Notes: generated by a model not told the origin, from the sequence alone. Shown: positions 12,483 through 43,938, counted from the first letter of the stretch. The stretch is DNA of 64,000 bases from Phoronis australis (GCA_002633005.1 NMRA01000001.1:963755-1027754), one strand, 5' to 3'. Translations and numbers: made by a program.

Positions 12483-14894
12483 ATGAGCATTCCATTGTTT
12501 GCTCTACTTATTCGTGTGGTGCTTGTATTGTTGGCCTTAGAAGTGTATCAGTGGGTCGTTGCTCGGGAATGCAATCCTCTTCCAAATTCCAGGATAGCCT
12601 GCTATGAACTATTCCGTATTCAAAGTTTAGATATTGTAAGAAAGATTAAACAGCCACCTGACGAGACACGAGCAAAGAGAAGCAACGACTTCGTGGAGAA
12701 AAAAGTCTCCATGCGTTTCCGTGCATTCAAGAAAGAGTTTAACGTTAAGCTTGAAAACAGCAAACACTTGTTTACCAAACAGTTCCACGTCGAGGTAGTG
12801 GATAGCATCAGGAGAAATTTAACTCATGATCTTCACTTAGACAGGTTTTACACTGGATTTTTGCAAGGCGACAATAATTCAATTGTTTATGGCTGGCTGG
12901 AAGGCACGAACAAAGAATTCGATGGCGTAATATTAACGGGAAATGAGAGTTTCTTCGTTGAGTCCGCCCTGAAATATTTTGTAGACAATGATGAAAATAA
13001 GCTACATTCGGTGATTTACAGAGGAAGGGATATACATTTCAATGAATCGAAGCAATATTTCTTTGGTACGAAAAATGCAACCACTATTGTCGATTCCAGT
13101 GGTTTTCAGAATATTAATGAAATTTTGCGCTATAGACGGAAAGTTGATATAATTTTATCGAAACACAAAATTTGTCAAATACACGTCATCGCTGATCACT
13201 TGTTTTTCAAGTACGTTGCAGGGAACAGTGTTGGAGTAGCAGTAAAGGAAATCGTTCTGCACATTGCCTACGCAAATATCATTTACAATTTCACTGAATT
13301 TGATAAACTGCTTGGTACAACAATTGGTTTGAAGCTGCACAAAATATCACTGTTTAAAGATGCAAGTGGCCCTGGTTACAGTTTGGCAGGGGAAGTAAGG
13401 AACGCCGAAGAATATTTATTCAAGTTCTCAGAGATAGGTGAACAAAACTTTCGGAGTTTCTGTCTTGGAGTTGGATTCACGTACAGGGATTTTTCTGGCG
13501 TGCTTGGTCTTGCATACATTGGAAAACCCCATGGTGCCGGAATTTGTGGTTACTGCAAATATCGAGAAGGGGGTAGGCGGTGCTACAATACTGCAATAGT
13601 CACCTTTCTTAACCTTGGTAAGAAGGTATCTCGCTTAACTGGAACAGTAACAGTTGCCCACGAAATAGGACACAGTTTTGGAAGTGAACACGACAAAGTT
13701 GACCACCGAGTGTGCTCCCCTGGAGGTGGTGCGGGAAACTATCTCATGCATCCAATCGCTGGTACAAGCCAATTTCCCAACAACAAACTGTTTTCTGTCT
13801 GTAGCATAACTCAAATGTGGCCTGTGATTGAGTCGAATGGGTACTGTATGCTCGACGATAATGAACCACTGTGTGGTAACGCTGTTCGGGAAGCAGGCGA
13901 GGAGTGTGACTGCGGAGACAAAGATCATTGCGACGACTGGGACCACTGCTGTGTTCCGCCGGGTGACACGGTTCACAAGCCCTGCACTATCAGACGTCAC
14001 CTTGGTTACACGTGCAGCGCGACATCATCGCTGTGCTGTGATTCAACATATTGTCAACCAGTTGGTAAGATGGAACACAAAGTCTGCTGGGAAGGCTTCG
14101 AATGCTCTGGGAGTTCTATGTGCGACGGATTTAGCGCCTCTTGTCCGTTACCAACGCCGTACCCGGACGGAACTCCTTGCAGAGATGGCACCCTTTTGTG
14201 CTCGCGCGGAGTCTGCAGCCTTAGCAGATGCGCAGAACGTTCCATGAATCAATGCCAATGCATGCACAAAGACTTCCGGTGTTTTTTATGCTGTCAGAAC
14301 ATTAGCGGTGTTTGCGCACCCTATGACGAGCATCCGGGTCAAAGATCGTTCATAATTCTACGCCGTGGTGAGTTGTGCAACAATTACCGTGGGATGTGTG
14401 ATCACCGTGGAAACTGTTTTGAAAAAGACGCTGGCGCCGAGCAGAGGTTTCTTTATTTGTTTACCAGCAATGGAATATCTAGGGTAAAGTCTTGGCTTCA
14501 GCAGTATTGGTACATAGTTGTTGCTTGTGTTGCATTTTTAACTGTAGCAGGTGTTGCGGCGAAAACAAAGTTTTACGGATTTCACGTTAATCTAAATTTG
14601 TTAGCTCACAGAACTGGAAGCTTTGCAAGAGTCTGGTTTGAAGCGAGGCGTGCTATGGGACTGACCCTAACAAAGGCCCGCCTAGTCTATCATTTGAAGT
14701 TTAAATACTCAAAATGGTCTACAGAAATGCCCGTTGCCCGTGCACGATTGCGCATACTCTTTCCATCGGTCCCAAGAAACGTGATACGAATGTCCGTTAA
14801 ACAAAGTTCAAATGAAGAATGGGCAGTCAAACGCTTGTTAATGGAAGGCTTTCCATTTCATAAGCTCGACTGTGAAAGGTCGTCCGCCGTGTAA
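12483..14894 (+). CDS. ADAM10: ADAM10/kuzbanian-like disintegrin metalloprotease, copy 1 (intronless, 803 aa)
   Basis: Signal peptide, prodomain, furin-like sites RAKR and RYRR, RDFSGVLGLAY, zinc motif HEIGHSFGSEHD, Met-turn YLMHP, disintegrin CGN..EECDCG, Cys-rich domain, TM segment after WY, cytoplasmic tail. The symbol is family-level; one-to-one orthology is not established. Confidence 0.93.
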   Translation: MSIPLFALLIRVVLVLLALEVYQWVVARECNPLPNSRIACYELFRIQSLDIVRKIKQPPDETRAKRSNDFVEKKVSMRFRAFKKEFNVKLENSKHLFTKQFHVEVVDSIRRNLTHDLHLDRFYTGFLQGDNNSIVYGWLEGTNKEFDGVILTGNESFFVESALKYFVDNDENKLHSVIYRGRDIHFNESKQYFFGTKNATTIVDSSGFQNINEILRYRRKVDIILSKHKICQIHVIADHLFFKYVAGNSVGVAVKEIVLHIAYANIIYNFTEFDKLLGTTIGLKLHKISLFKDASGPGYSLAGEVRNAEEYLFKFSEIGEQNFRSFCLGVGFTYRDFSGVLGLAYIGKPHGAGICGYCKYREGGRRCYNTAIVTFLNLGKKVSRLTGTVTVAHEIGHSFGSEHDKVDHRVCSPGGGAGNYLMHPIAGTSQFPNNKLFSVCSITQMWPVIESNGYCMLDDNEPLCGNAVREAGEECDCGDKDHCDDWDHCCVPPGDTVHKPCTIRRHLGYTCSATSSLCCDSTYCQPVGKMEHKVCWEGFECSGSSMCDGFSASCPLPTPYPDGTPCRDGTLLCSRGVCSLSRCAERSMNQCQCMHKDFRCFLCCQNISGVCAPYDEHPGQRSFIILRRGELCNNYRGMCDHRGNCFEKDAGAEQRFLYLFTSNGISRVKSWLQQYWYIVVACVAFLTVAGVAAKTKFYGFHVNLNLLAHRTGSFARVWFEARRAMGLTLTKARLVYHLKFKYSKWSTEMPVARARLRILFPSVPRNVIRMSVKQSSNEEWAVKRLLMEGFPFHKLDCERSSAV

Positions 14895-14945
14895 CTCACT
14901 AAGTGTGCGAATTTGGTTACTAGAGTAATTTTCAGACTATTTTCA

Positions 14946-14951
14946 AATAAA
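14946..14951 (+). promoter_or_regulatory. Candidate polyadenylation signal of ADAM copy 1
   Basis: AATAAA ~50 bp after the stop codon. Confidence 0.4.
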
Positions 14952-17444
14952 ACCCATGAGACACGTGATCTCTCCCCAAGTATGGCGGCTTCCTGGAATT
15001 TAAATATGGCCGTCACTATAGCATGAGTAACTATCGGGAGCTCAAAATGTGTAACATTACGGACGTTTTGACGGTGCTTAATGTTGTAATTGAGACATAT
15101 ATGATATCATGACACAAGACAGAAAATAATTGCCGGCAGCCAAATTGGAAGGGAGGGGGAGGGGAAGGGGAGAGGGGGGACTCAAAAGAGGGAGAGTACG
15201 TTAGCGTGAATGTACATAATTTCATATTTGTAATGTTTGCTTTATATTTTATACTCGTTTTCAATATACTCCATGTAACGTTGAAATACTTTTTAGTTAA
15301 CAGTTTGTTTTTTCAAACTGTATTTACTTTTGAAATTACAGTTTTGTCGGTTCTTCGCACTCTGCAATTCACTGAAGAGCAGACGAGACGATTACACTCT
15401 GCCGGCAACGACATTTGTAAGGTTGGTAGGTCTTTGATTTTGATTTGGTCGCGTTGTTTTTTTTTTCTGATTTTGGCTTTCAAACTTGCTGAATCGACTG
15501 CCTTAATTGCAAAAAAACAGGGAAAAGCCAGCCGAGCTCACGGCCCAACTCATTGGTTCTACGTAAAAGTCGGCGCTTGTTCTATGTTCAGCTTGTGTGG
15601 ACTGGGACTACGGGGTTCTGGGTTGTGGGTCGAGAGGGTCGTGGGTTGTGGGGGTCGAGGGGGTTACAGAACAATCCCCTGCTGATGCATCATTGACGCC
15701 GGTCAATCTTCCAAGTTCAAGGCGGGAATCAATTAAAAACTTGTGCTCCCCATGGTCCTTGGTGGGTGGTTTTATCCCACAGTTACCGTGTAATTTTCTA
15801 ATGGCGTAGCTAATGCTTGCCCGTTCCGCAGACTTCAAATTTTCCTCCAAACTTTTGAGGGTTATCGAGGGTTACAATGCCCTATTTTTTCAGAGAACTG
15901 GATGGGAAAGTCAATATTTGGTATCTGTTAATAGGCTAAAACCAGGTAATATATCCTTTTGAAGAAAAATGTTCATTTTTGAAGAAAATGTACGAACTTG
16001 GCTACCAGTGTATTTTTATGCTCTTCTCAAAAAGCCCGTGTAATGTGGTCACGGCGGTAATTTACTAGGGACAATATGGTGGAAACGTGATTATATAACT
16101 TTCTAATTTCTCAATTTCTAAAAATAGGTAAATAAAACAACAAGAATGGATCAACTGAAATTTTCAGATGTAATAACGTCCTTTGTCAACAGAAACAGAA
16201 ATAAAGTAACTATAAGTAGCAGTAATGAAATACATTAATTACTGTTTTAAGTTGTGAGTGACAGCTATCATTGGACAATGGTGGACAATTTGAAGCGTTT
16301 CAAATTTTAAAGTATTGTAGGAATTGTTATTTTTGTTAAAACTAATAAGATTTTACCATAATTGAAGGGCTGTGATGACGAAGGTACGACACTTTGACGT
16401 ACTTGTCTAGAGCTCGAAACTGGCGCCTGAGGACACAACTTGTTCTCAACTAGAAACCAATATTGTTCTGTGATTGGGTTTCAAGTAGATTCCGTGAAAA
16501 TATGGGTTTCTGGTAGAGAACTCGAGGGTCCAAGTTCAGACTCGAATTTATAACTTTAATGCCGATGTCAACAAGTACAAACTATTGATTAGACTGCCAT
16601 CCACTCAAAGCATAGAACACTCGAGGGCAAGATAACAGATACTCATACCTTGAGTTCGTCCAAAAGTAGAACAGAAAATTCAGAACACGTTTTCTAGTTC
16701 AATTTCGAACACTAAAATAGACCCCGAGCCTAGACTCTGGCAACAAACTAGAGTTCAAACTCTTCAACTTTTGAGTTAACACCTTTAACTTTTGACTTTA
16801 ATGCTGGGGTCATCAAGTGCAAAATATGTGTTCATATTTATCGCCGTAAATCATAATGTAATTGATCACAGAATAATGGACACTTATTAAGCTGACACTT
16901 AATTGAAACACCAATATCAAAAAGAAGTTTCGGAGATAAAAGCACATAATCACGAGACACCCTGCTGTGATGAACACATCACATCATATCAGACGCCTTT
17001 AAGACAAGGACGAAACGCCACGTTTTCCAGTAAAATGTAAGTTCCACCTCCGTCTTTGAACCTCTACTAGATGAGTCAAAACATTCATTCGTGTATGGTT
17101 AATTGTAACAAATAAAACCGACATTGCGTGATCGTTTTGATTAGAAAACCCATCATGAATTCAACAAAACTTTATGAAATTACTGCAAATCTTACCTATT
17201 ACCACAAAACTGTCACCGATTATTCTTGCGTAGTTCCACGCATTTTTCCGTGATAAAGTCGAAGATGTCTGACTCACTCAAAGGTGACCGGCTTATCTAC
17301 GTTTAAGTTTACCTACACTGAATCACGTGAACGGCTTTGGGCAACGCTCGTCAGGCTTCTGTGTTAAAATGCGTTAATTACTTCTTACTTATTTGATGAA
17401 TTTTGCAGTTTTTAAAAAACAAATAAACTAAAGACGGCCATTAC

Positions 17445-17592
17445 CACTGGCGGCCAAGGGGGCCAAGCCCCCCCCCCCTAAAATTCTCCCAGATTCCATT
17501 TGGTAGTTCGGGGATGCGAATGTCTGGCGGTCAAAATCCTGACTAATAATCTGCACTGGACCCCCTAACTCAAAATCCTGGATCCGCCCCTG
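17445..17592 (-). mobile_element. MITE family A copy, 5-bp TSD ATTAC
   Basis: Reverse-strand homolog of 1028-1195; ATTAC at 17440-17444 and 17593-17597. Confidence 0.85.
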
Positions 17593-18812
17593 ATTACAGC
17601 ACCTGTCGCGACCGTAAAGTATTGCTTGGAACAGAAATTGTGAACAAAACATTGAGTGTTCGACTGCTGACACAAAACTACGTTTTCTGGATTGCTGTTT
17701 GAGCACCGTAGCGACTCCAAACTTCGGAATTCGCTATCTCGAAAGAGTCCATCGATTTTCTGACTACACAGCGTCTTAAAGTGAAGGTTGTGTGTCTCAG
17801 AATTTTATTAGAATTTTCATTTTTTCTATGTCGTATTTTCATGTGAAAAGTACTAAACTCTGAACGTATTTTTGCGATTAAAAACGTCGGCGTTAATTGT
17901 GGACAATCCAAGACACTGCGTTTGAGCATATTGATCAATTAAAGCTTTAATGTAGAAAGTTTGGTGAATTCTGGTGAAAGGACGTTTTCCCTATCAGTGT
18001 GTCTTTCAAAAAATGTTTTGTTCCAAAAACGCTTGGTCACGTGACAACAAGAATGAACTAGTGCTGTGACAGACACGAATAGATGCGTATCAACTCCTAG
18101 TTTCAGCAAATATGTGAATACAACATTTCAACTTGGGATACGTAACCTTCATGCAGCTACAAATTCCCGTGATTAAGACCATCACCAAAATCTGATCCTC
18201 TTTGGTCCTAACTCAAACAAATGAGAAGGGGTATCTGGGCTAAGAGAAAAAAACAAACACAAAATGTCCGTTTACTATTGCTTAGACAAAGCTTGTCGTA
18301 TAAGATGGCACGCCATGACAAGCTAACTTGTGGTGCCTCAAAGTTCTCAATCATGAATGAACTGCTGGTTTATTCTAAGCCTAGAAATCACGTCTAATTT
18401 GGCTTAGGAACAACTTGAAACCAATTTTATGAGAGGAATTGTCAAAATCAACGGGCCTATTGAACACAAAACGTACCGAGAGTGGTTTAGATGAAATAAT
18501 ATCCCACGAGACATTATTCCGCGTGAGTTTCTTTCGTTTTCTTTCGGGATTTTACAAATACTTCTGTTTACGTGGCGAATCACAGCCTGTTGTGTATGTA
18601 CGTGCGCGCTATGTTGCTAACTTACTATAGTAAAAGAAAACAGTATTAAACGTAACGGTTTTTACTTGAAATTGATAAAAAGCGTGACAGTTATTGTAAA
18701 TTGAACTTGTACCATATTTCGAAAATAAATAAGAATATTTATAACATTGTAAAATCCTCACCGGGTAGCTGCACTCATTCATCAAACTAGGTCATTGGTC
18801 GAATCGCGTAGC

Positions 18813-20100
18813 CTACACGTCGTCTGTTTTCACGAAGATGTTAAAAGCGCCACTGTTGATGACAGCTCCAGCGAATTTGCCTGTTGTAGCGTTGTTGCAG
18901 GTACGTTGGCGCATTTCTACGGATTCTGTAGCATGGATAGGTTCACGTGTTGCTGGTACGGTCGTTGTTGCTGCTCGTGTAATACTGTCGCCGATAGTAT
19001 CGGGTGCTGTCATGGCCAATGACCCTTTGGCAATGTTGGATTTGAGCGTGATTTTTGCACTTGCAGTTGATGTGACCGTAGTTTGCAGAATGTTGGACAT
19101 TGCTCTCTGCTGTGTAGTGGACGCTGATGCATAGTTGTTCAAACTTGCTATATTTTTGTGTCCACTGAGATCACGATTGTGTTAGGTGGTATGCCTGCAT
19201 GACGAATTAGTTTTGCGCCCACGGTTCGCCTTACGCTCGGCTGTGGTTGGTTCTCTTACTGGCAGGAAGCCTGCTCCTTGTGTATTTTTCATGAAAAAAG
19301 CTATTGTGTTTTTGCCCATTGATTCTTGTACCATATTTCGGAGTCGAGGTTTCTGCAGTGGTTGATGTTGAGATAGAAATAGGTTAGTCAGGTGTGTGTT
19401 TGGTGGTCTTAAGTAGCAACGGGGCACCTTGACGGATCGGACGTATGAGCAAATGGTTATGGATTAGGCTAAATGGTCTAGCTAATGTCGATGCCAGTGC
19501 CGAACCTTGTTTTCGTTTCCCTTTCGTTGACGTCTAGGTATTGCATGGTTGCCAGATTTGTCATCAAGCAAATGCATGTCTGCCCACTGTAGATGGCGGC
19601 TTTCATGTGAATCCCGGAAACCAAACAGTTTGGTATTTAAGAACCATACTGTGTTGAAGAGTGCTTGTGGTGAATGTTTCCCAAGTTGACCCCACAACAA
19701 CAGTTCTTCCTCGTCATCTGTCAGTAATTCTGCCCTGTTTTTTCGGTTTCCTTTTCCTTGTTGTTTCAAGTCACATCGACGAGCAAAAAGCACGTCTTTG
19801 GAAAGCCGGAATGTGGTTGGGTTGTCTACCACAGTGACTGCATGGGCAGCCAATTTAAGTCTTTTATGTGTTGTTCAATGGCCCTGTGAAAAGATGTTAC
19901 AGTGTCCGGCTCATCGGGCTTCGCCAATGCCATTAGAAAGCCAGCTACGAGGGTGTCTAGCTGTTTCGGGGATATGTCCAGCAACTTTCTATTTTCATTG
20001 AGTTCAACTAGGCAAGCAGCAAATCTCTTGGTTGCACTTACAGTTTTCTTGACAGAGTTGATTTTTTCAGTCGATGAAATCTTTTGCTAAAATTTACTTG
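18813..20100 (-). mobile_element. Decayed Crypton-type tyrosine-recombinase element (DUF3504-like), frameshifted
   Basis: Minus-strand fragments in order: ...SPKQLDTLVAGFL..., LKQQGKGNRKNRAELLTDDEEELL..GQLGKHSPQALFNTVWFLNTKLFGFR...RHLQWAD, SMGKNTIAFFMK, and SGHKNIASLNNYA (catalytic H and Y region). These fit animal Crypton/DUF3504 motifs. Boundaries approximate. Confidence 0.8.
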
Positions 20101-20664: not shown

Positions 20665-23040
20665 ATGATACCAACGCTTGTGATATTATTCTTATTATCT
20701 CTCGGATTTTGCGTGGATGGAGACGGAAGCAACTGTAGACCTCTTCCAAATACAAAAATTAAGTGTTACGAATCATTTAGAATAAGTTCACTACGTGTAA
20801 TAAAAAGGAAAAGAGAAGACAACATCCGACAGAGATCACGTCGGTCTAAAAGAACAGATCGTGGCGCTGCGTACACAAATAACGTCTTGATGCATTTCAA
20901 AGCCTTCGGAAAAGAGTTTTACCTGGACTTAGAGCCGGACAGGGAGTTGTTTACAGACAACTTCCACATTGAAACAAAAGGCAAGGTAGTGTCGAAATTA
21001 ACTTTCAACTTGTTGAGGACAGGGGTGTTTTATGCTGGATTTGTTCGAGGTGACAATTATTCTCATGCTTACGGCTGGCTAGAAGAGCAAAATGCCGAGT
21101 TTGACGGCATCCTCACGACAAAAGACGAATGTTACTCGATTGAGCCCGCAAAAAGATATGGATTGAATCTGCAATCTGTCATTTATAGAGGGAATGATTT
21201 GAGCTCGGAATTTTCTTACTGTGGTTTGCAAAAATTACCTCGAGCATTTAATGACCATAGCAGACAATTTCGCCATAAACGACAGACGGAGACTGAAACG
21301 ATGAAAAGCAAAATTTGCCATTTGCATGTCGTCGCCGATCATTTGTTTTTTAGGCATGCTGCAGAGAGCAGCATCGGATCTACAGTCAAAGAAATAATAC
21401 TCTATGTTGCTTATGCAAATGCCATGTATCAGCATACCAAATTTGATACCATTCACAGAACACAAATTGGATTGAAATTGCACAGAATTTCGCTGTTTAG
21501 AGATGAAAATGATCCTGGCAACACTCTGTCTGACAAAATTAAAGTTGCCAAGACGTATTTAGAGACATTCGCTTCCTCAGATGTCAGTAATTTTCAGAGT
21601 TTTTGTTTGGGATTAGGTTTTACATACAGAGACTTCCCTGACGGCGTCTTAGGCCTTTCCTACCTCGGAAGCAATCACGGGACTGGAATCTGTGGCTTAT
21701 GCGTTAATATGGAACACACCCACAGATGCTTGAACTCTGCCATAGTATCATTTTTTAATTATGGGAAACGGGTTACGCGCTTGGTTGGAACTGTAGCCGT
21801 CGCTCACGAAATAGGTCATAGTTTCGGTTCAAAACATGACTTCATTGAACACAAAGCTTGTGCACCTGGCGGGGGCGCCGGGAACTTTTTAATGTATCCC
21901 CAAGCTGGCACTGGTCAAGATCCCAACAATAAAATTTTTTCAATCTGTAGCATTCATCAAATGTGGCCTGTAATTGAAAATTTTGGTTTTTGTATGCTGA
22001 ACAAGGATACGTCCGTGTGTGGTAACGCCGTTCAGGAACATGACGAGGAATGCGACTGTGGAGAGAAGGATACTTGCGACGACTGGGATCATTGCTGTGT
22101 GCCGCCAGGTGATAAGGAACATAAACCGTGCACTATCAGGCGTCACCTTGGTTACACGTGCAGCGCGACATCGAAGTTGTGCTGCGACGCAGAAACATGC
22201 CAACCAGTTGCAAAGGCTAAGCAAAAGGTTTGCGTGAAGGGCTTTGAATGCGTGCGGTCATCTACTTGCAACGGAGTCGATTCTACATGTCCCATTCCGT
22301 CAATTTTGCCTAATGGAACACCTTGCAGATCGGGAAGTCTTATATGTTCAGGGGGAGTGTGCAACACAACAATGTGTGCGCAATTAGGGTTTCAACAGTG
22401 TCAGTGCAAACACAAGGAGTTTCTGTGCGTGTTGTGTTGCCAAGATGCAAACGGCACGTGCGTGCCACATGGTCTTGATCAAGGAAAGGGAACGCTAATT
22501 CAACTCAACCGAGGTGAACTGTGCGGCGGAAATCAAGGAACTTGCAACATGCTTGGAAAATGTTTCTTTCGGGACTTAGACGCACATGGGTATTTTCTTT
22601 TTTTGTTCACCAAAGGAGGCTTGTCTTCAATAACAGCCTGGATAAAACAACATTGGTACGTTATTTTTGCAATTGTGGTTGTTTTGCTGGCAACTGGGAT
22701 CGTCTTGAAGTCCAAGCGCTATATGTACTCAGAGGAAGAAAACCCAAATTTTATGGCATATCAGATTGGCAACTTTGCGAGAATAATGTTTGAAGCAAAA
22801 CGCCTCTTCACTTTGTTTCGAACAAATCTTTTTCTTGTCCTGAGGTTAACAAATACATGTAGGTATAAAATTGCAGTTCCTGATGCTCTTGCAAGAATGA
22901 CAATCATATTTCCAACTGCTCCGAAGGAAACGATTCAGAAGACGGTGAGTGAATGCTCAACAGAAGATTGGGCAATAAGGCGTTTGCTGATGGCAGGTTT
23001 TCCTTTACAAAAGCATTCTTCCCCGAATGTCTCGTCTTAG
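20665..23040 (+). CDS. ADAM10: ADAM10/kuzbanian-like disintegrin metalloprotease, copy 2 (intronless)
   Basis: HEIGHSFGSKHD, FLMYP Met-turn, YCG cysteine switch, RSKR/RHKR furin sites, disintegrin, Cys-rich, TM, tail. Start placed at MIPT (20665) by homology to copies 3 and 4; an in-frame ATG at 20626 is the alternative. Symbol is family-level. Confidence 0.93.
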   Translation: MIPTLVILFLLSLGFCVDGDGSNCRPLPNTKIKCYESFRISSLRVIKRKREDNIRQRSRRSKRTDRGAAYTNNVLMHFKAFGKEFYLDLEPDRELFTDNFHIETKGKVVSKLTFNLLRTGVFYAGFVRGDNYSHAYGWLEEQNAEFDGILTTKDECYSIEPAKRYGLNLQSVIYRGNDLSSEFSYCGLQKLPRAFNDHSRQFRHKRQTETETMKSKICHLHVVADHLFFRHAAESSIGSTVKEIILYVAYANAMYQHTKFDTIHRTQIGLKLHRISLFRDENDPGNTLSDKIKVAKTYLETFASSDVSNFQSFCLGLGFTYRDFPDGVLGLSYLGSNHGTGICGLCVNMEHTHRCLNSAIVSFFNYGKRVTRLVGTVAVAHEIGHSFGSKHDFIEHKACAPGGGAGNFLMYPQAGTGQDPNNKIFSICSIHQMWPVIENFGFCMLNKDTSVCGNAVQEHDEECDCGEKDTCDDWDHCCVPPGDKEHKPCTIRRHLGYTCSATSKLCCDAETCQPVAKAKQKVCVKGFECVRSSTCNGVDSTCPIPSILPNGTPCRSGSLICSGGVCNTTMCAQLGFQQCQCKHKEFLCVLCCQDANGTCVPHGLDQGKGTLIQLNRGELCGGNQGTCNMLGKCFFRDLDAHGYFLFLFTKGGLSSITAWIKQHWYVIFAIVVVLLATGIVLKSKRYMYSEEENPNFMAYQIGNFARIMFEAKRLFTLFRTNLFLVLRLTNTCRYKIAVPDALARMTIIFPTAPKETIQKTVSECSTEDWAIRRLLMAGFPLQKHSSPNVSS

Positions 23041-23404
23041 CGCTTTTGCAAAAGAAAATTACAGTTCACCATCATCGCCAATATCAGTAAGAGTACTTGT
23101 GTTTCACTGCACGATGCCATTTCCCGTAACAAGAGTAGTCAACAACATCAGAATGAAAGTTGATCAGACAGCAGTCGCGGGAACTGTGTACTTTTCGCAA
23201 CACCTGCACAGCATAACGAAAGAGGTCAGAAAAGTACAATGTGCAGTGTAGTTTGTCGCTGTGAGCTAGACCATGGCAGCTGAAAAGATCAGAAAACGAT
23301 GGCCAATTCGGGCTCCTGAAGGGAGAATAAAACTCATAGCGATGGTGGAAATTGTTGACAATCGCAGCTAGGATTGGGGTCAGTCTTGATTTTTATGTCT
23401 TAAA

Positions 23405-26233: not shown

Positions 26234-28705
26234 ATGATTCCAACGTTTGTGATATCGTCAGTGATTGTAGTCTCATCGTCTCTTGGATTTTTTGTACAAG
26301 GAGACAGAAGAACTTGTAGACCTCTTCCCAATTCGAAAATAAGATGTTACGAACCATTTCACATAACATCATTGCGCAAAATAGACAAAGCAAAACAAAA
26401 TGCACAACCGGGATCACGTCGGCCTAAAAGAAATGACCGAGAAGCATTGTATACTAATGCCGTCATCATCAATTTCAGAGCCTTCAAAAAAGACTTTTAC
26501 CTAGAATTGAAACAGGGCAGAGAGTTGTTTACGGACAATTTCCACGTTGAAGCTAAAGGTCACACAGGATCAAAATTTAACTTTGACCTTTTGAAGACAG
26601 GCGCGTTTTATACAGGATTTGTTCGAGGTGACATGTACTCCCTTGCTTATGGCTGGCTTGACGAGCACATTGCCGAGTTCGACGGCATCTTCAATACAAA
26701 AGATGAATGTTACTTGATTGAACCCGCAAAGAGACATGGATTGAATTTGCGCTCTGTTATTTATAGAGCGAGTGATTTGGAACTCGAAGGCTCTGTTTTT
26801 CATTACTGTGGATTACAGAAAATGAAAAGACGATTCGAATCTGGTATTTTTCATGACCATAATAGACAATTTCGCAAAAAACGGCAATCAGGGACTCGTA
26901 AGGTGAAAAACAAAATTTGTCATTTGCACATCATCGCGGATCATTTATATTTTAAGCATGTTGCAGACAGCAGCATTGGAATAGCAGTCAAAGACATTGT
27001 ACTTTATGTCGCACATTCAAATGCTTTGTATCAGTATACCCCATTTGACAAGATTCACAACACGGAGATCGGTTTAAAATTGCACAAAATAACATTGTTC
27101 ATGAATGAACACGACCCGGGCAACACACGGATCGGCAGAGTGGAACAGGCAAGCGCATATTTACACAAATTCGCGTCCACGGACAGCAAGTATTTTAAAG
27201 ACTTTTGCTTGGGATTAGGTCTTACTTACATAGATTTTTCTGGAGGTGTGCTAGGTCTAGCTTACATCGGGAACCACCGTGGGGCAGGAATCTGTGGCTC
27301 ATGTGTGCTACGGAAAACAGGACGCAGATGCTTGAATGCCGCCATAACAACCTTTCTTAACTATGGGAAAAGGGTCACGCGCTTGGTTGGAACTATTACC
27401 ATCGCCCATGAAATAGGTCACTCTTTTGGGTCACTACACGACCCTGTCTTACACAAATCTTGTGCACCTGGCGGGGGCATAGGAAACTTCTTAATGTATC
27501 CCTACGCTGGCACTGGACAATATCCAAACAACAAATTTTTTTCAGTTTGTAGCATTAACCATATGTGGCCAATAATCGAAAATAGGGGATTTTGTATGTT
27601 AAACGAGGATAAGTCCGTGTGTGGTAACGCTGTTAAGGAACATGACGAGGAATGCGACTGTGGAGAGAAGGACACTTGCGACGACTGGGATCATTGCTGT
27701 GTACCGCCAGATGACGGGGAACATAAACCGTGCACTATCAGGCGTCACCTTGGTTACACGTGCAGCGCGACGTCGAACTTGTGCTGCGACGCAATAACCT
27801 GCCAACCAGTTCCAAAGGCCAAACAGAAGGCATGTTTGAGGGGGTTTGAATGTTTGCGTTCGGCTACCTGCAACGGAGTCGATTCTACATGTCCCATTCC
27901 GTCAATCTTGCCTAATGGAACACCTTGCAGATCGGGAAGTCTTATATGTTCAGGGGGAGTGTGCAACACAACCAGATGTGCGCAATTAGGGTTTCAACAG
28001 TGTCAGTGTAAACACAAGGAGTTTCTGTGCGTGTTGTGTTGCCAAGATGCAAATGGCTTGTGCATACCGTATGACCAAGATCCAGGAAACGGAGCGTTCA
28101 TTGAACTGACCCAGGGTGAAGATTGCGACGGAAATCTTGGAGCATGTGACATGTTTGGAAAATGTTTTATCAAGACCTTAGAAGCACACGAAACTTTTCT
28201 GATGTTGTTCACAGAAGAAGGTCTCTCTTCGGTGACAGACTGGATTAAACAAAAGTGGTACGTAATTTTTGCCGTTCTGGTTGTATTACTGGGAGCTGGA
28301 GTAGTCATAAAGTTCAAACGTTTGTTGAACAGCGTAGACCCTGGCTTGATGGCATATAGAACAGGAAATTTTGCAAGGATAATGTTTGAAGTAAAACGTA
28401 TCCTCGGCATGTTTCTAGTAAAGCATCACCTCCTCTCCAAGTTGAAATTTAACTCTGGCATTCAAGTCCCTGATGCCTTTGCAAGATTAGAGACAATGTT
28501 TCCGACTGTTCCAAAAGATACGATACGAAAGACAGTGCGTGAATGCTCAACAGAAGATTGGGCGGTGAAGCGTTTGCTGGTAATAGGATTTCCTTTAAAG
28601 AAGTACTATGATCCGCGTTTCTCATCTTTGGGTTCCTCAACAGCGGATGATAGCTTGCAAACATTACATTACGGAAGTCCCGAAACCACTTCCACTGATC
28701 ACTAA
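26234..28705 (+). CDS. ADAM10: ADAM10/kuzbanian-like disintegrin metalloprotease, copy 3 (intronless)
   Basis: HEIGHSFGSLHD, FLMYP, YCG switch, RPKR/RKKR, disintegrin, Cys-rich, TM, tail. Start placed at MIPT (26234); the upstream in-frame ATG at 26159 corresponds to an out-of-frame ATG in copy 4. Symbol is family-level. Confidence 0.93.
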   Translation: MIPTFVISSVIVVSSSLGFFVQGDRRTCRPLPNSKIRCYEPFHITSLRKIDKAKQNAQPGSRRPKRNDREALYTNAVIINFRAFKKDFYLELKQGRELFTDNFHVEAKGHTGSKFNFDLLKTGAFYTGFVRGDMYSLAYGWLDEHIAEFDGIFNTKDECYLIEPAKRHGLNLRSVIYRASDLELEGSVFHYCGLQKMKRRFESGIFHDHNRQFRKKRQSGTRKVKNKICHLHIIADHLYFKHVADSSIGIAVKDIVLYVAHSNALYQYTPFDKIHNTEIGLKLHKITLFMNEHDPGNTRIGRVEQASAYLHKFASTDSKYFKDFCLGLGLTYIDFSGGVLGLAYIGNHRGAGICGSCVLRKTGRRCLNAAITTFLNYGKRVTRLVGTITIAHEIGHSFGSLHDPVLHKSCAPGGGIGNFLMYPYAGTGQYPNNKFFSVCSINHMWPIIENRGFCMLNEDKSVCGNAVKEHDEECDCGEKDTCDDWDHCCVPPDDGEHKPCTIRRHLGYTCSATSNLCCDAITCQPVPKAKQKACLRGFECLRSATCNGVDSTCPIPSILPNGTPCRSGSLICSGGVCNTTRCAQLGFQQCQCKHKEFLCVLCCQDANGLCIPYDQDPGNGAFIELTQGEDCDGNLGACDMFGKCFIKTLEAHETFLMLFTEEGLSSVTDWIKQKWYVIFAVLVVLLGAGVVIKFKRLLNSVDPGLMAYRTGNFARIMFEVKRILGMFLVKHHLLSKLKFNSGIQVPDAFARLETMFPTVPKDTIRKTVRECSTEDWAVKRLLVIGFPLKKYYDPRFSSLGSSTADDSLQTLHYGSPETTSTDH

Positions 28706-31440: not shown

Positions 31441-31533
31441 AGCAGGCCCGTAGCGGGGGGGTTCGATCTAAGCCCCCGCGGAAAAGGTCCAGCCCCAGTA
31501 AATACAGGGTATTCGTGGACAACAACAACTACT

Positions 31534-35430: not shown

Positions 35431-37089
35431 TTTTAACTAGACCACGGAGGACGCGCCTGGTAGTGAAACAACTCCTTGAGATATGGACGGAACGACGTAC
35501 ACCGATAGCAGTGCTGTAGTGGGGCGTAGGCGCACGTAGGCGCAGCCAACCACATGTTGACATTTAAACGTAGCGCCTACGTTCAGTGCTCAAGGTGATG
35601 CGGTGGGCTTTGGGGGCCTACTTACCTCTAATTTTACCACTACAACACTGGCCAACAGCAGAATATGTATGTTGTTATCTGCTCCACAAGGAATCCTTTC
35701 CACCTCTTCTCATTTCTACAAATTGATGTCTATTTAAATGACAATTATTCGGGTGAAAAGAATTTCGTTCTTGAGAAATGAAAAGAGGTCAATGTGAAAA
35801 GAACTGAGTTAATGAGAACAATATTGCGATTGACCGGAAAATAACTATAGCTGGTAAGAAAAGAATTGCGTTATTGAGAAAAGACCCTTGCGGACCGTTT
35901 TTGATTCAACGAGGTCTCACATATGGCGTTAGAATTTCCACAGGTTTGCTAACTATGGTGTCATAAGGATACCCAGAGGCGTCCGTGGTCACCATGCGAA
36001 TCAAAAGTTGAGTTGGTCGCAGAAATATTGAAAACTGCAGATTTTACTATCGAAGTTGTAAGAGTATTCAGAAAATATCTTCAACTCTCAATGTTGTTCA
36101 TATTGAATACAAGACACAATCCAGGGGTTGATTATTCAATTTTCCATTGTAAGATGCAGAAGTTCTTCGTAAAAATCCGGCACTTTACAAGGCCAGCCAC
36201 GTTTTCAGTTCACCGCAGTATCTATCTTGTTAGTTAGGCCTCGATAAAGAAAAAGTGCAAGAATTCAAATCATAACTAAAGCCTTAATACCATTGCAGCT
36301 ACCATTACGATCACCAATCACTCCGGTGTCGGTTGACCAGCGAAGCGGAGAACTGAGAGATAAGAATTAATTGCATAAATAATCAGAAAGTTTCTTTGTT
36401 CAAACAACTCCGCTGCATTCACGTACTGATAGCTTAAATGTATTACCAAGCTCTGTTTTCGTCATTTACTTTAGTTTTAAAGCAAACCGGCATTTATATT
36501 GTCTGCTCTTCATAGAGCGTAACGTAATAATACGCTTGTTTACTCTGCGTAGTTCTCTAACAATCTACTGTGTGAACGTTAGGAATGACCAACTCGAAAC
36601 CGTAGACTCGTGTATCAAGATGTGCAGGGCCACAGCAATAAGTACAAATACTGGTCCTTAGCGTTTTGGGAAAGAAGGCTCATTAAGAATCTCAGTGTAT
36701 GCAACAGTGAGACACATAACAATTTTCAATTCAAATTTGAATTAACAATCAAAACAATTTGGTTATTCCCTCATCTATATTTATTACAAGACGTATTCTG
36801 CACATTCTTGTGTGAATTGAATGGTGACGACTCGAGGTGTTACTCAACAATTTTTGTTGGTTTTGGACTTGAAAAAGTACATGTCTTTGCGACTTCACCA
36901 CTTTGTTCCACAGGGTGTACAAACCTGAAGCACGAAACTCGAAATGGCCAGCCACCCAAACAGTCGCCAATTTTAAATAAAACTGTGGAGACAAAATTCA
37001 AACGTGGCTCGAAAATGATAGAGCGACCCATTTAGTGTCGCGCCTGTAAATTGAAAAAAGGCACTGCGCAGTTCTCACTGGGTTTTGTG

Positions 37090-37500
37090 TCTGACTGTGC
37101 ACACATCACTGGGATTGTAGCCTTTCTTCCACTGTGTTGAAAACTCCATGAACAAAATGAAACTTGATTGTGGCTCATATTTTTGGTCCTTTGAGCACTC
37201 ACTACAAAGGAACTCAGGCTCAGACAAAAGTGCCAAAAACGCAAAATTGACACTTTTCAGCCACAAACCACCACTTCCTTGCCAACTCTCGACACGAGCT
37301 TAAATGGATTATGAATGAAAGTTCACGGACTATTGTGCAAATGTGGTCCAAGAGACTTGCCACCCAAAGCAGATTTTTGAAAACTCTTGAGAGATATAGA
37401 AAATCGCAGCCAATTCTTCTGTCACTGCATTGCAATGCAGCCAGTACTGCAACAGGAAGATGCCATTTTGAAGTAAATAAAATTCGCAGCCGTATAGTGG
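37090..37500 (+). mobile_element. Decayed transposase-like remnant, dispersed repeat copy 2
   Basis: Homologous to 400-950 (-); see that entry. Confidence 0.45.
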
Positions 37501-39010
37501 GCTTTTCTGATTCACATCTTCACGAGCAAAAGTGAACCAGATTCATTGAATCTTCTTGCAATGCATACCTCACAACTGCCGCCAAACCCAATCTATACAA
37601 CTACTGTTTAACTGAAGCATGGGAAAATCACATATCTGCAGAAACTGATATACATGTACGTCCACTACAGAGAATAATCGGTGATGTAGGACTGAACTTT
37701 CCAGGATTACGACAATCAGATGGTTTACAACTTTGGGTTTAGGGAGTATAATTACTTCATTACAATTGGTGACATACGTTATAATTATCGTTCTCTTTAA
37801 AGTATAAGATTCTTCACACAATCATTAATTTATGTCCGTGTTCTTTGTAAGAAATATCATCTCTACGGTCCCTTTCACGAAAAATGACTTAGGACTTAGA
37901 TAGATCTTATTTCGTCTTATTTCACAGTTGCTGAAAAAGGTTTAGCCATGTAATTGGAGCGCAATACATTCTAGGAATAATTCATAAATGTCTCAAAAAT
38001 GTCACTCTTTTCTCAAATGAGATTTGATTATTTTTCATAAATAATTGTGAGGGGCGCCAAAACTAAATTTCTGACTTAAGTCTTTAGTAGTCACTTTTCA
38101 TAAAACAGACCCTTGATCAGACTAATTTACTGTTTGTAAATATCAGATGCATTTACCTACAAGAATAAATATGGAGACGGCCATCTTGAGATAGTTCTAC
38201 TCCTTCCACATTGGTGAGCTTGTGATTGGCGAAAGAGGCAGAATACAACGCCATCTCTTGATCAATAACGTTGTCTCAGCAAAAATGTGCAACATTCTTT
38301 ACTGGACAAGTCCACACGTTTTAAAAAATACGGGACTTTTCAAACTAAATAATGTTTGAGGGAGTATCTAGTCACCAACAATAAAGTTGCGCTCCTGAAG
38401 ATCGCAGGATGAAAAGACGAGATAGGCTCATGTGCTGTTATGTTGTCAGAGCAGCCCGAGCATAGCAGACAATACAGTCAACGTGGCTCTGACGTCACGC
38501 ATGCGCTGTTTTTAACCAGTACTTTAGACCACAGGCAGACGTATTTCCCGATGACTCATAACTACATAAGAAACATTAAAGATGTTATGTCTCAATAAGT
38601 TGTGAATATGCAACAAACCACGCCGGGTCTTTCGGTGTGCCGGAAACTATTCGAACTAGAACCAGTTAGCATCAAAATCTCGCGAAAGTCTCGTTTTGCG
38701 AGGCAAAGGTTATGTAAATGAGTATGGTCAAAGGCATTAACGGTCTCTGGTATCGTAATATGTCATCGTCACCCTAATGAAACAAGGCACAGTTTTTATT
38801 ATTAGCTCATTTCACTATGCGTAGTATTTGGAATTACTAAGGTTCTCTTGTTTCTAAGTGTATCAGTTAGAGTGTTTTCTTTAAAACTGCAATTTATTTA
38901 CAGATTGTTTCGTTTACTGATTATACTTGTGCACACAGTTCTCCAGGAAGTCACGAGGTGGCGCTTGTTACAAATTTAAATATTCACGGTTTGAATGAGC
39001 ATCTTTAATG

Positions 39011-40590
39011 TTGGACACCACAGGCGCTTGGGTTTATCGCAAATGACGTCACTCAAGAAAACATAAAGGTTGGACACTTAAACTTTGCCAAGCCGAGGCT
39101 CCCAACTTCAACCGTCCAAAATCCAAATAAAATCTGCGTGCACCTCCCTTAGCCTGGTACTGCATAAACATTCAGAGCCTTATCTTTCCTAGATCCCATT
39201 AACTGTCTTCGTGAGTGGTGAAATGGCGATGGAATTTCCAAAACAATCTCAAAACTCTGAATTCAAGGACCTGAAATAGTAAACATGGCGGATTTCAATT
39301 GTGCTTCAACTTGTACGCCTGTCGTAGGTGAAACTTCGAGTTTGAGCAAGCAACCTATATTTCAAATTCAATAATTCTAATCCAAAACTCAACTATTGAG
39401 AATGTTAAAGTTAGTATTTTAATGATTATTTGTAACTTTATTCCACTGACGGCTCATTTTAGCCCTTAACTTAGAAATTTATTACATAAACTGGTGTATC
39501 TTGTTTCTCATCTTGACATAACGCACTTTTTTGATTGAAGCACAACACACTCGTCCAGGAAACGCAGTCCCTGCAAGTGTTACAATGCGCGTGGCCGACC
39601 AGTTAACTCAATAGTTTTGGCCAAAAGTAAAACCTTCATAAGAAATCACAGTACACAAAAACTTCGCATATCAATACAGTATCAGGATAATTTATATTTG
39701 ACACAAATATGTGAGTAATTACATTTATTTGGCAATAAAGTGCTCTCCGCTTCTCATGATCAAGCAGTCGAGGGATTGACGATGAAAGCCGCGCGAAATT
39801 AGACTTTCGGATTTAGCTCGGGAGCGTCCGTCAAAAACCCGGATGTGCGAAGACCGTCTGCCATGACATCACGGAATCAGGTCCTTGAATTTGTGATTTT
39901 GGCATTCTTTTGGCATTGTTGTCGCCAAATCACCACTCGAAGGCAATTTGAAGAGATCAAATGAAAGAAGGTATTCTAAGAGTTGTTCGATGCTAGTTTC
40001 GTGGAGTTCCATGCACATTTGAGTAGAAAATTTTTAGGAAACAGATTTCGAGTGTCCAACCTTTATGTTTTCTTATATATATATATATAAATATATATAT
40101 ATTATTGAGTGACGTCATTTGCGATAAACCCAAGCGCCTGTGTTGGACACTAAAGCTTTGCCGAGTCTAGGCTCCCAACTGCAACTGTCCCAAATCCAAA
40201 TAAAATCTGCGTGCATCTCCCTCAGACTGGTATTACATAAACCTCCGAACCCTTATTTTTCTATGAGTGGTGAATTGGCGACGGAATTTCCAAAACAAAT
40301 GCAAAAGTGAATTCATGACTGATAAATAGTTAACGTAGCAGATTTCAGTTGTGCTTTAACTTGTACGCCTATCGAAGATGAAATTTCAAGTTTCATCAAG
40401 CAACCTCTATGTCAAAGTCAAGAAATTTGACCCTAATTTAAATGATTGAAGTTACTAAAATTAGCCTTCCATTTATGACTATTTGCTTTTTCAGATAGCT
40501 CTCAATTTAGAATTTAGTTGCAAGAACTGACGTATCTTGTGGCTTGATCTTGACATTATGCGTTACGCTTAGTTGAAGCACAACAAACAC
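39011..40590. repeat. Local ~500-bp diverged duplication (39070-39560 vs 40143-40590) with a foldback arm and a (TA)n tract
   Basis: ttggacact..ctttgcc..aggctcccaact..aatccaaataaaatctgcgtgca occurs twice. A more diverged inverted arm lies at ~39870-40059. (TA)n at ~40073-40104. Confidence 0.75.
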
Positions 40591-40983
40591 TCGGCTTTTG
40601 GGGGAAATTTCCGATGTCTCACCGCATGTTTAGTGGCGGGAAATCACCTTTCGGCAGCTGCTGGATTTCGCAGTAGGCCTACATGTACGTTAGCAGCCAT
40701 CAACCCGTGGTTCTTCGGTTATAAACAACGTTATTTTACAAAACCAAAGTTTAAAAACATTCAAACTTATACTAAATTATGTGAAAGGCACTCAAATAAC
40801 ATTCGTGGGCGCATGGAAACAGAGCTTCGGAATTGCTTCAGGAGCGTCCTTGATATTCTAAATTAATTAGCTAATCCTCCTGGGTTCTTCCTGCAACGGA
40901 AAAGTCGTGAAAACCAGTCGCACTAATGCAAAAATATTTGACTCTAAAGTTTTAAATTAGAGAGGTACAATTTACATGACAAC

Positions 40984-41076
40984 TTACGCAAGTCGCCCTG
41001 TGGAACACACTTAAAGGTTTACGTGAGTTACAGAATAAACTTAATTATGCAAAAACTTACGCAAGAACTTACGCAA
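40984..41076 (+). promoter_or_regulatory. Cluster of C/EBP-type bZIP sites (TTAYGCAA x4) upstream of ADAM copy 4
   Basis: TTACGCAA at 40984, 41057, 41069; TTATGCAA at 41045; the homologous region of copy 3 has TTATGCAA at 25890 and 25957. Confidence 0.5.
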
Positions 41077-41364
41077 AAACTTATAAGAATTTCAATGTAG
41101 CAGGTCCTATCAATACAAATTGTTTCTCTGCTCTCGAAACAGCGGTATGTTTTTTGTTCGAAGAGTTTGTATCCAATGCCATTAATTCGTATTTAGGCTC
41201 GAGTTTTACTCAAAAGCGACGTATTTTTTTGACACAATAAATGTAAATTCTCACTCACACGTGATGGCCATGGTTAGTACAAATGATTCATCATTTGCAC
41301 GCAGTTGTGATCTTTTTAGGAAAATGACAATGGCAAAGAGCGTCACCAAGAAGTTACTGAAAGT

Positions 41365-43938
41365 ATGATACCAACGCTTGTGATGTCGTCAGCGATCGTT
41401 TTTGCCTTGCTATCTCTTGGATTTTTTGTAGGTGGATACAGAAGAACTTGTAGACCTCTTCCCAATTCAAAAATAAGATGCTACGAACCATTTCACATAA
41501 CATCTTTGCGCAAAATTGTGAAAGGAAAACAAAATGCACAACCGGGATCACGTCGGACTAAAAGAGACGATCATGGCGTATTGTACACGAATGATGTCTT
41601 CATGAATTTCAAAGCTTTCGAAAAAGAATTCTACCTAGAATTGGAACAGAGTAGAGAATTGTTTACTGACAATTTTCACGTTGAAACAAAGGACCAGGGA
41701 GGAACAAAATTTAATCTGGATCTATTGATAATGGGCGCGTTTTATACAGGATTTGTTGGAGGTGACAATTATTCCTTTGCTTGCGGCTGGCTAGAAGAAC
41801 AAACTGATGAGTTCGACGGAATCTTCAGAACAAGAGACGAATGTTACTTTATTGAGCCCGCGAAAAGATATGGATTAAATTTGAGGTCTATCATTTATAG
41901 AGCGAGTGATTTGGAGCTCAACGGCTCTGAATTTCATTACTGTGGATTACAAAAATTAGCAAGAAAATTTGCATTTAGCGTTTCTCATGACCTTAATAGA
42001 CAATTTCGCCGAAAACGGCAAACGGGGACCAAAACTATAAAAACCAAAGTTTGCCATTTACATGTTATCGCGGATCATTTATTTTTTAAGCATGTTGCTG
42101 GTAGCAGCATTGGAACAGCAGTTAAAGAAATTGTGCTTTACGTCGCCCACACTAATGTTATGTATAAGAATACTCAATTTGACACGCAGATAAGTTTAAA
42201 ATTGCATAAAATCTCGTTGTTCAAGAGTGAACATGATCCGGGCAACTCTCTGATCGGTAAAATAGAAAGTGCAGTTGCGTACTTAAAGAAGTTTGCGTCC
42301 ACGGGCACCAAGCATTTTAAGGGCTTTTGCTTGGGATTAGGTCTTACTTATAGAGATTTCCCTCGCGGCGTCTTAGGCCTTGCTTTCGTCGGGAATCATC
42401 GCGGAGCTGGAATTTGCGGTAGATGCTTGCACCGGCGAGAAGGACCCAGATGCTTGAATTCCGCCATAGTAAGCTTCCTTAACTTTGGAAAACCAGTCAC
42501 GCGATTGGTTGGAATCATAACCATCGCCCATGAAATAGGTCACTCTTTTGGGTCACCGCATGACCTTCCAGAACACAAAACCTGTGCACCCGGCGGGAGT
42601 GTCGGAAATTTTTTGATGTATGCCTTCGCTGGAACCGGTCAATATCCAAATAACAAACTGTTTTCGGTTTGTAGTACCTCTCACATGTGGCCAATAATCG
42701 AAAATAGGGGATTTTGTATGTTAAACGAGGATAGGTCCGTGTGTGGTAACGCTGTTAAGGAACATGACGAGGAATGCGACTGTGGAGAGAAGGACACTTG
42801 CGACGACTGGGATCATTGCTGTGTGCCGCCAGGTGATAGGAAACATAAACCGTGCACTATCAGGCGTCACCTTGGTTACACGTGCAGCGCGACGTCGAAA
42901 TTGTGCTGCGACGCAGAAACATGCCAACCAGTTGCAAAGGCCAAGCAAAAGGTCTGCGTGAAGAGCTTTGAATGTGTGCATTCGTCCATCTGCAGCGGAG
43001 TTGATTCTACATGTCCCATTCCGTCAATTTTGCCCAATGGAACACCGTGCAGATCGGGAAGCCTTGTATGCTCAGGGGGAGTGTGCAACACAACCAGATG
43101 TGCGGAAGTTGGGCTTCAACAGTGTCAGTGCAAACACAAGGAGTTTCTGTGCGTGTTGTGTTGCCAAGATGCAAAGGGCGCGTGCATACCGTTTGACCAA
43201 GATCCAGGAAACGGGGCGTTCATTCAACTCAACCAAGGTGAACTGTGCGGCGGAAATCTTGGAACATGCGACATACTTGGAAAATGTTTCACCGAGAACT
43301 TAGACGCACACTTAAATTTTCTGGTGCTGTTTACAGAAGAAGGTCTCTCTTCGGTGACAGACTGGATTAAACAAAAGTGGTACGTAATTTTTGCTGTTCT
43401 GGTTGTATTACTGGCAGCTGGAGTCGTCATAAAGTTCAAAGGTTCATTGAACACATCGAGCGAAAACCCAGGCGTGATGGCATATAGAGTAGGCAACATT
43501 GCAAGGGTGATGTTTGAAGTAAAACGCATCCTCGGTATGCTTCTAGTAAAACTTCACCTTGTCGTCGGGATGAAATTTATCTCTAGCTTAGAAGTACCAG
43601 TTGCCTTTGCAAGATTGGAGACGATTTTTCCTACTGCTCCGCAAGAAATCATTCGAAAAACGGTGCGTAAGTGTTCAACGGAAGAATGGGCAGTGATGCG
43701 TTTGCTGATAGCAGGATTTCCTTTACGAAAGCATGCTGTCCCGCATGCCCCCTCATTGTATTTTTTAAAAGAAAAGAATCTACTGACGGAATCGACTTCA
43801 TACATACGAGACTCTGGAAGCTCTGAGTCCAGTTTGAGTTCCAGATATTCTCTAAATAGTGACACTTCAAGTAAGTTTGAGAATAACCCGACGAAAGCTG
43901 ACAAAACCAATAGCATGTCAAGAGGCTATAGACCTTGA
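41365..43938 (+). CDS. ADAM10: ADAM10/kuzbanian-like disintegrin metalloprotease, copy 4 (intronless, 857 aa)
   Basis: HEIGHSFGSPHD, FLMYA, YCG switch, RTKR/RRKR, RDFPRGVLGLAFVG, disintegrin, Cys-rich, TM, tail with a Ser-rich extension. Symbol is family-level. Confidence 0.94.
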   Translation: MIPTLVMSSAIVFALLSLGFFVGGYRRTCRPLPNSKIRCYEPFHITSLRKIVKGKQNAQPGSRRTKRDDHGVLYTNDVFMNFKAFEKEFYLELEQSRELFTDNFHVETKDQGGTKFNLDLLIMGAFYTGFVGGDNYSFACGWLEEQTDEFDGIFRTRDECYFIEPAKRYGLNLRSIIYRASDLELNGSEFHYCGLQKLARKFAFSVSHDLNRQFRRKRQTGTKTIKTKVCHLHVIADHLFFKHVAGSSIGTAVKEIVLYVAHTNVMYKNTQFDTQISLKLHKISLFKSEHDPGNSLIGKIESAVAYLKKFASTGTKHFKGFCLGLGLTYRDFPRGVLGLAFVGNHRGAGICGRCLHRREGPRCLNSAIVSFLNFGKPVTRLVGIITIAHEIGHSFGSPHDLPEHKTCAPGGSVGNFLMYAFAGTGQYPNNKLFSVCSTSHMWPIIENRGFCMLNEDRSVCGNAVKEHDEECDCGEKDTCDDWDHCCVPPGDRKHKPCTIRRHLGYTCSATSKLCCDAETCQPVAKAKQKVCVKSFECVHSSICSGVDSTCPIPSILPNGTPCRSGSLVCSGGVCNTTRCAEVGLQQCQCKHKEFLCVLCCQDAKGACIPFDQDPGNGAFIQLNQGELCGGNLGTCDILGKCFTENLDAHLNFLVLFTEEGLSSVTDWIKQKWYVIFAVLVVLLAAGVVIKFKGSLNTSSENPGVMAYRVGNIARVMFEVKRILGMLLVKLHLVVGMKFISSLEVPVAFARLETIFPTAPQEIIRKTVRKCSTEEWAVMRLLIAGFPLRKHAVPHAPSLYFLKEKNLLTESTSYIRDSGSSESSLSSRYSLNSDTSSKFENNPTKADKTNSMSRGYRP

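Follow-up and report, generated by a model that had tools for sequence, protein, structure and literature searches.

Tandem ADAM10/17-type protease genes of Phoronis australis carry a conserved CUE-like tail domain shared with choanoflagellate ADAMs

Four single-ORF genes for ADAM10/17-type proteases lie in tandem in a 64,000-nucleotide stretch of the Phoronis australis genome (GCA_002633005.1 NMRA01000001.1:963755-1027754), here called the window. Positions are counted from its first letter. The four genes and the mapped parts of their products are as follows.

12483..14894, + strand: gene 1, single-ORF ADAM10/17-type protease of 803 aa (intact ORF, one terminal stop, Pfam)
13659..13694, + strand: zinc-binding motif HExxHxxGxxHD of gene 1 (motif in translation)
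14508..14573, + strand: predicted transmembrane helix of gene 1, residues 676-697 (AF2 full-length model)
14592..14759, + strand: predicted long cytoplasmic helix of gene 1, residues 704-759, continuing into helix 1 of the CUE-like domain (AF2)
14727..14855, + strand: CUE-like three-helix domain and G[YF]P extension of gene 1 (translation, tail alignment, profile, AF2)
20665..23040, + strand: gene 2, single-ORF ADAM10/17-type protease of 791 aa (intact ORF, one terminal stop, Pfam)
22876..23004, + strand: CUE-like domain of gene 2 (translation, tail alignment)
26234..28705, + strand: gene 3, single-ORF ADAM10/17-type protease of 823 aa (intact ORF, one terminal stop, Pfam)
28466..28594, + strand: CUE-like domain of gene 3, the copy folded in isolation (AF2, Foldseek, sub-threshold Pfam CUE match at E=0.064)
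41365..43938, + strand: gene 4, single-ORF ADAM10/17-type protease of 857 aa with a Ser-rich extension beyond the domain (intact ORF, one terminal stop, Pfam)
43594..43722, + strand: CUE-like domain of gene 4 (translation, tail alignment, RNA depth)

Gene 1 encodes a signal, prodomain, reprolysin domain, disintegrin, membrane-proximal domain, transmembrane (TM) segment and a helical tail with the CUE-like domain. Pfam identified a prodomain, reprolysin domain, disintegrin and ADAM17-type membrane-proximal domain in all four window proteins. ADAM17_MPD matched each of them and exceeded its cut-off in three; the disintegrin matches were correctly placed but scored 20-27 bits, below the cut-off of 35.1. 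The zinc motif HEIGHSFGSxHD is intact in all four translations, and each protein has a furin-type basic site. The layout is that of ADAM10/17-type (M12B) proteases: prodomain, HExxHxxGxxH(D) reprolysin domain, disintegrin, membrane-proximal domain and TM segment. Genes 2-4 are 75-82% identical in DNA. Judged by sequence, the window genes are tandem paralogs of an old ADAM10/17-type protease subfamily. Ectodomain shedding would be expected of these proteases from their ADAM family membership and intact zinc motif.

Two repeats were observed upstream of gene 1. A 1-kb tandem duplication (9112-11113, 98.6% identical, N at the junction at 10111) probably arose either in assembly or by duplication in the very recent past. 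A 95-bp inverted repeat (11763-11857 and 12296-12390, 98% identical) stops some 90 bases short of the gene 1 start codon; the bin overlapping it has high DNA read depth, and it is likely a small non-autonomous transposon. Near the far end of the window, a single-ORF C2H2 zinc-finger gene on the - strand (60600-61865, start MPRGFLVKR, zf-C2H2 E=1e-12) is consistent with an animal genome and, we presume, resembles INSM/IA-1-type SNAG transcription factors.

Transcription was assessed in three raw RNA runs (X5, X6 and X7) of one study carrying the same species label, using about 18-19% of each run's reads. Genes 1 and 4 are transcribed through the tail block in two of the three runs. Gene 1 has one-strand depth of 3.6-7.4 over the whole ORF in X5 and X6 and 0 in X7. 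Gene 4 is covered on one strand from about 41346, just before the ATG, through the tail and past the stop in X5 and X6, without joints (151 and 181 reads, against 1 in X7). Depth over its CUE-like domain (bin 43602-43742) is 5.1 and 6.6 in X5 and X6. With mapping at 92% likeness, a few of the gene 4 reads stem from paralogs. Depth does not exceed about 1.3 on gene 2 and about 2.3 on gene 3. Read direction agrees with + strand RNA, assuming the usual stranded library.

An earlier note on this sequence had claimed that the four tails share one block, each followed by xxGFP, within otherwise divergent tail sequence. Translation of the + strand (table 1) returned the quoted blocks at all four places; the 43-codon coordinates open 6 residues ahead of the quoted text and close with GFP. 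Of the 42 columns of the block, 19 (45%) are invariant across the four paralogs; the catalytic domain reaches 49%, the adjoining upstream linker 4% and the downstream C-terminus 8%. Divergence of the surroundings therefore holds for the linker and the C-terminus and fails for the juxtamembrane segment, which is 26% invariant and has an AYxxG-type motif. The spacing of 23 residues from the motif proline to the dileucine was verified in all four tails; in the Tollip CUE domain it is 24, counted from the alignment. The tryptophan of the block named in the note is specific to the lineage of the Phoronis window.

Spread of the domain was surveyed with a profile built from 11 tails and scored against 1.84 billion representative sequences (clusters at 50% identity). 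The upstream part of the tail alignment was misaligned, and only the domain columns were used. The profile returned 130 matches at E<=0.001, including 39 at 1e-10. Sorted with a local ectodomain profile, 74 are ADAMs, 18 have only a TM segment upstream, 34 have fewer than 130 residues upstream and 4 are other proteins, one of which (P0160) is a multi-CUE protein (Pfam CUE E=4.4e-13). These matches show the domain, as profiled here, to be nearly restricted to ADAM10/17-type ADAMs. The subfamily extends well beyond the four window genes and is much older than they are. A full-length search with a window protein returned 41 homologs, 7 of which carry the block. It is absent from the sampled canonical ADAM10s, in agreement with the claim that canonical ADAM10 tails have no such domain. 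A word-index homolog search with the tail region alone gave none among 40 candidates.

Organisms were looked up for 27 carriers and obtained for 14; two more were named from precomputed Pfam lists. Choanoflagellate carriers come from five species: Monosiga brevicollis, Salpingoeca kvevrii (two proteins), S. macrocollata, S. urceolata and Didymoeca costata. Animal carriers are the brachiopod Lingula, the annelid Owenia, the amphioxus Branchiostoma lanceolatum, the hemichordates Saccoglossus and Glandiceps, and the molluscs Mercenaria, Nucella, Batillaria, Pinctada and Potamilus. The named carriers include no vertebrate, insect, nematode, echinoderm or cnidarian, most of the 130 being unnamed. 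PF02845 is listed for none of the 13 carriers with precomputed Pfam lists. Because choanoflagellates carry it, an ADAM with the CUE-like tail likely predates animals.

Unrooted ectodomain trees were built from rows with >=70% cover and the zinc motif, using FastTree (95 rows) and a quick IQ-TREE run (49-row subset), with no ADAM17 included. The window's four genes form one recent cluster within a 26-row bilaterian branch (SH-aLRT 99 in IQ-TREE; FastTree agrees) that also holds carriers of annelid, brachiopod, mollusc, hemichordate and amphioxus origin. Those from choanoflagellates make up a separate branch (SH-aLRT 97) that includes one tail-less EukProt row. A third branch (SH-aLRT 91), without the block, contains canonical ADAM10/Kuzbanian rows from an annelid, a moth, echinoderms, lamprey and turtle. 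In the unrooted 49-row tree the window proteins stand apart from this branch and do not group as ADAM10/Kuzbanian orthologs. Four tail-less rows on long branches (P0006, P0009 and P0016 from Centruroides, and P0014) nest among carriers, which suggests secondary loss of the domain there, possibly in scorpions.

The closest known proteases are ADAM10 and ADAM17. Human ADAM10 (PDB 8esv, 6be6) is the best PDB sequence match of gene 3 (E=8e-64), and the two share a prodomain, a reprolysin domain with intact zinc motif, a disintegrin, a cysteine-rich membrane-proximal domain and one TM helix. Carriers are labelled 'ADAM10-like' in databases, yet they have only about 30% identity to canonical ADAM10, form a separate branch and possess a tail domain that it lacks. 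The note's 'ADAM10-like sheddase subfamily' is supported as an ADAM10/17-type subfamily outside the canonical ADAM10 branch. ADAM17/TACE (PDB 8snl) matches gene 3 at E=1.7e-54 and shares ADAM17_MPD with the window proteins; full-length human ADAM17 (824 aa, PDB set) is unmatched by the tail profile at E<=10. Scores over matched regions favour ADAM10 over ADAM17. With an unrooted tree that omits ADAM17, two histories are left: an ancestral tail lost by canonical ADAM10, or carriers as an old paralog. An extended form of the first, which we consider rather unlikely, would give the last common ancestor of choanoflagellates and animals an ADAM10/17-type sheddase whose ubiquitin-reading CUE tail tied intracellular ubiquitination to shedding. 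Many invertebrates and amphioxus would then have kept the tail in a third, so far unrecognised ADAM10/17 lineage, and canonical ADAM10 and ADAM17 would have lost it.

The fold was predicted with AF2 from the 53-residue gene 3 domain and a 114-row alignment. The model has helices at 5-15, 21-30 and 34-44 (pLDDT 86.9). In the full-length gene 1 model (mean pLDDT 85) the CUE-like domain scores 88-94 and the long helix at 704-759 about 56-91 by blocks of ten. The predicted tail is a long post-membrane helix continuing into a three-helix bundle. A helix-like linker of similar length with an AYxxG-type start occurs in most bilaterian carriers; some basal carriers (P0008, P0075 and P0156) have a shorter or low-complexity linker in its place.

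The predicted bundle has the three-helix, roughly 42-residue geometry of CUE/UBA domains, with CUE domains among the top Foldseek rows. Rows 1-2 are chains C and S of 7z36 (prob 1.00, rmsd 0.7-0.8 over 39; chains of 46-47 residues), presumably SMARCAD1 CUE1. The titles of rows 3-6 name CUE domains (CUEDC1, Tollip, RUH-075 and SMARCAD1 CUE1). No row reached E<=0.001 for the gene 3 domain model. CUEDC1 and gp78 superpose on this model with rmsd 1.1-1.3 over 39-40 columns. A wide VIA structure search gave Z 7.0 for a clamp-loader helical subdomain, 6.9 for 7z36_S and 6.1 for Tollip, a background level for small helical bundles. An ESM Atlas structure search with the Saccoglossus tail placed first two clusters (TM 0.88 and 0.80) whose members contain CUE in 56% and 22% of cases, below the tool's naming bar; Atlas feature searches yielded no usable match. 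The top cluster is mainly arthropod WW-plus-CUE, and its TM of 0.88 extends over 57 residues of the Saccoglossus tail, including the C-terminal extension; by this model comparison it is a candidate for the closest CUE relative.

Sequence comparison gave a similar picture. The tail profile's best match among 177,635 PDB sequences is the Tollip CUE domain (E=0.89), and the multi-CUE protein P0160 was retrieved at E=1.4e-5 from the 1.84 billion sequences (hhalign probability 85%). The Pfam CUE gathering cut-off of 21.1 bits was not reached by the 11 aligned tails, the best score being 13.4 bits in one of them; among the window tails, one of four gave a sub-cut-off match of 12 bits. The domain is accordingly filed as CUE-like and not as PF02845. 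The earlier assignment to a CUE-like domain stands as a predicted bundle with CUE domains among its top structural rows, and falls short in Pfam score and Foldseek significance. A sub-cut-off Cac1_C match (Pfam E=2e-4, two of 11 members), which scored above CUE on the CUE-matching member, covers only 22 residues and was rejected as a local resemblance. Matches of the tail to AcrIIA14, RuvA domain III and Arp2 had E above 1 and were taken as noise.

Residue counts were made on 129 carriers, namely the tail-profile matches minus P0160. CUE domains are defined by an MFP or hFP motif and a dileucine motif (PMC6688830). In the carriers an hFP motif follows helix 1 in 127/129, a dileucine-type pair ends helix 3 in 124/129 (strict LL in 104/129), and both occur in 122/129. 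The MFP-type motif previously proposed is borne out in its hFP form; the motif is mostly FFP or LFP, with M in only 5/129. Cue2 contacts ubiquitin through M19, I43 and L47 (PMC13232801). The equivalent positions are hydrophobic in 128/129, 128/128 and 125/126 carriers, and the D40 equivalent is acidic in 92/128. The residue ahead of hFP, equivalent to Cue2 D18 and Asp in both Cue2 and Tollip, is acidic in 1/128. The two positions before LL are basic in 77/128 and 64/128, and the domain is net basic (median +2). In UBAh an equivalent helix-3 Ser or Asp contacts ubiquitin Arg42 (PMC13232801). Beyond the two CUE motifs, the most invariant residues are an R (126/129), an E (128/129) and the G[YF]P[ML] extension. 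The pattern is that of a domain surface under strong selection but no textbook ubiquitin reader. Carriers share with CUE domains (Tollip, Cue2, CUEDC1, gp78; PF02845) three helices, the hFP and dileucine motifs and the hydrophobic triad. They differ in a loop one residue shorter, F or L rather than M before FP, no acidic residue ahead of the motif, a basic helix 3, the invariant R and E, the G[YF]P extension and the setting in the tail of a type I membrane protease.

Similarity of four recent paralogs is weak evidence by itself, and the 75-82% DNA identity of genes 2-4 would suit recent tandem duplication with no selected domain. This reading is refuted to near certainty: chance does not account for the block, which the 1.84-billion library contains in 130 proteins at E<=0.001, these being clusters at 50% identity that include five choanoflagellate species, and within the window it is far more invariant than its flanks. 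The bundle could also have evolved independently, its FP and LL packing the core and its CUE resemblance being convergent. All structural scores in Foldseek and VIA are sub-significant, AAA+ helical subdomains, clamp-loader subdomains and EF-Ts score as high as CUE in VIA, a search that fails to tell CUE apart from small helical bundles of other kinds, and the tails stay below the Pfam CUE cut-off. Sequence and structure nevertheless indicate CUE separately, with both motifs in register and a loop differing by one residue, and convergence appears improbable. Since sequence and structure agree, though no single test is significant against the curated CUE set, the tail domain very probably descends from CUE.

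What a CUE-derived domain would bind is a closer matter. The reading we favour, tentatively and at somewhat under even chances, is that the CUE-type fold serves as a ubiquitin docking site. After removal of the prodomain at the furin-type site, the enzyme would cut membrane-protein ectodomains as ADAM10/17 do; both steps are expected from what ADAMs in general do. Carried beneath the membrane by the long helix, the CUE-like bundle would be placed where its hFP / V / LL surface could weakly engage the Ile44 patch of ubiquitin on ubiquitinated receptors or sorting adaptors. Such engagement might steer the protease to its substrates, or control its own endocytosis and so its surface level and lifetime. 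Predicted complexes of the gene 3 domain with ubiquitin, run without alignments or control folds, scored 0.18 and 0.17 against a mark of 0.34 and weigh neither for nor against binding. A partner other than ubiquitin is nearly as likely because of the charge pattern, the similarity to SMARCAD1 CUE1 and the family-specific R, E and G[YF]P. Candidates are a dedicated regulator and the long helix from the tail of another ADAM molecule, in dimerisation or autoinhibition. The top Foldseek rows (7z36, presumably SMARCAD1 CUE1) belong to KAP1-bound CUE chains, the family has invariant residues of its own and a basic surface, the domain is almost confined to one protein family, and a long helix of conserved length precedes it in bilaterian carriers. 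The helix is, however, replaced by shorter or low-complexity linkers in P0008, P0075 and P0156, and the canonical ubiquitin-contact triad is kept from choanoflagellates to amphioxus. Precedent exists on both sides in PMC6688830: almost every CUE domain characterised so far binds ubiquitin, but SMARCAD1 CUE1, which has both motifs, binds the KAP1 coiled coil at ~158 nM and ubiquitin at ~952 uM, and according to the authors the motifs do not allow the ligand to be predicted. SMARCAD1 CUE1 (PDB 6h3a, 6qu1) is among the best structural rows and has an LFP-type motif. It differs in its nuclear remodeller context and in having 16-17% identity (6h3a), and nothing in the carriers suggests KAP1 as partner.

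Notch, cadherins, TNF and growth factors are among the proteins released by ADAM10 and ADAM17, and it has long been asked how the cytoplasmic tails of these enzymes control activity and the choice of substrate. The conserved, folded domain in the tails of a sister lineage reaching back to choanoflagellates provides a concrete, testable handle on such control. Were the domain to read ubiquitin, receptor ubiquitination would be linked directly to shedding by a connection older than animals; were it to bind another partner, it would add one more non-ubiquitin ligand for CUE. Many invertebrate database 'ADAM10' entries (Lingula, Branchiostoma, Saccoglossus, Mercenaria) belong to a subfamily of their own, a point that matters when Notch-pathway genes are surveyed across genomes. 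The ADAM subfamily with a CUE-like tail is real and apparently undescribed, as the earlier note had supposed. The accessible open-access literature yielded no description of an ADAM-plus-CUE architecture; subscription papers on ADAM evolution, InterPro/CDD/SMART and supplementary tables may already record the clade or domain. In their available text, PMC9334734 mentions ADAM and CUE in unrelated passages with no ADAM-CUE architecture, and PMC12166595 describes none.

Several carriers have unusual architectures. P0025, P0060, P0068 (Nucella), P0063, P0069 and P0072 have 300-660 additional residues beyond the domain; the one extension examined in full, that of P0025, is Ser-rich and of low complexity. 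P0161 (564 aa) has the tail domain after a TM-like segment, with no ADAM ectodomain match and no Pfam match, and may be a non-ADAM protein that bears the domain. P0090 (Salpingoeca urceolata, 1407 aa; a single record) is an ADAM with CUE-like tail followed at residues ~1008-1275 by Exo_endo_phos2 (PF22669, E=1.7e-56), which we assume to be inositol 5-phosphatase-like; the record reflects either a fusion of sheddase and phosphatase or a chimeric transcript. P0049 (Pinctada, 1387 aa) has weak fn3 and TM-type matches upstream of a complete ADAM and is likely a fused gene model.
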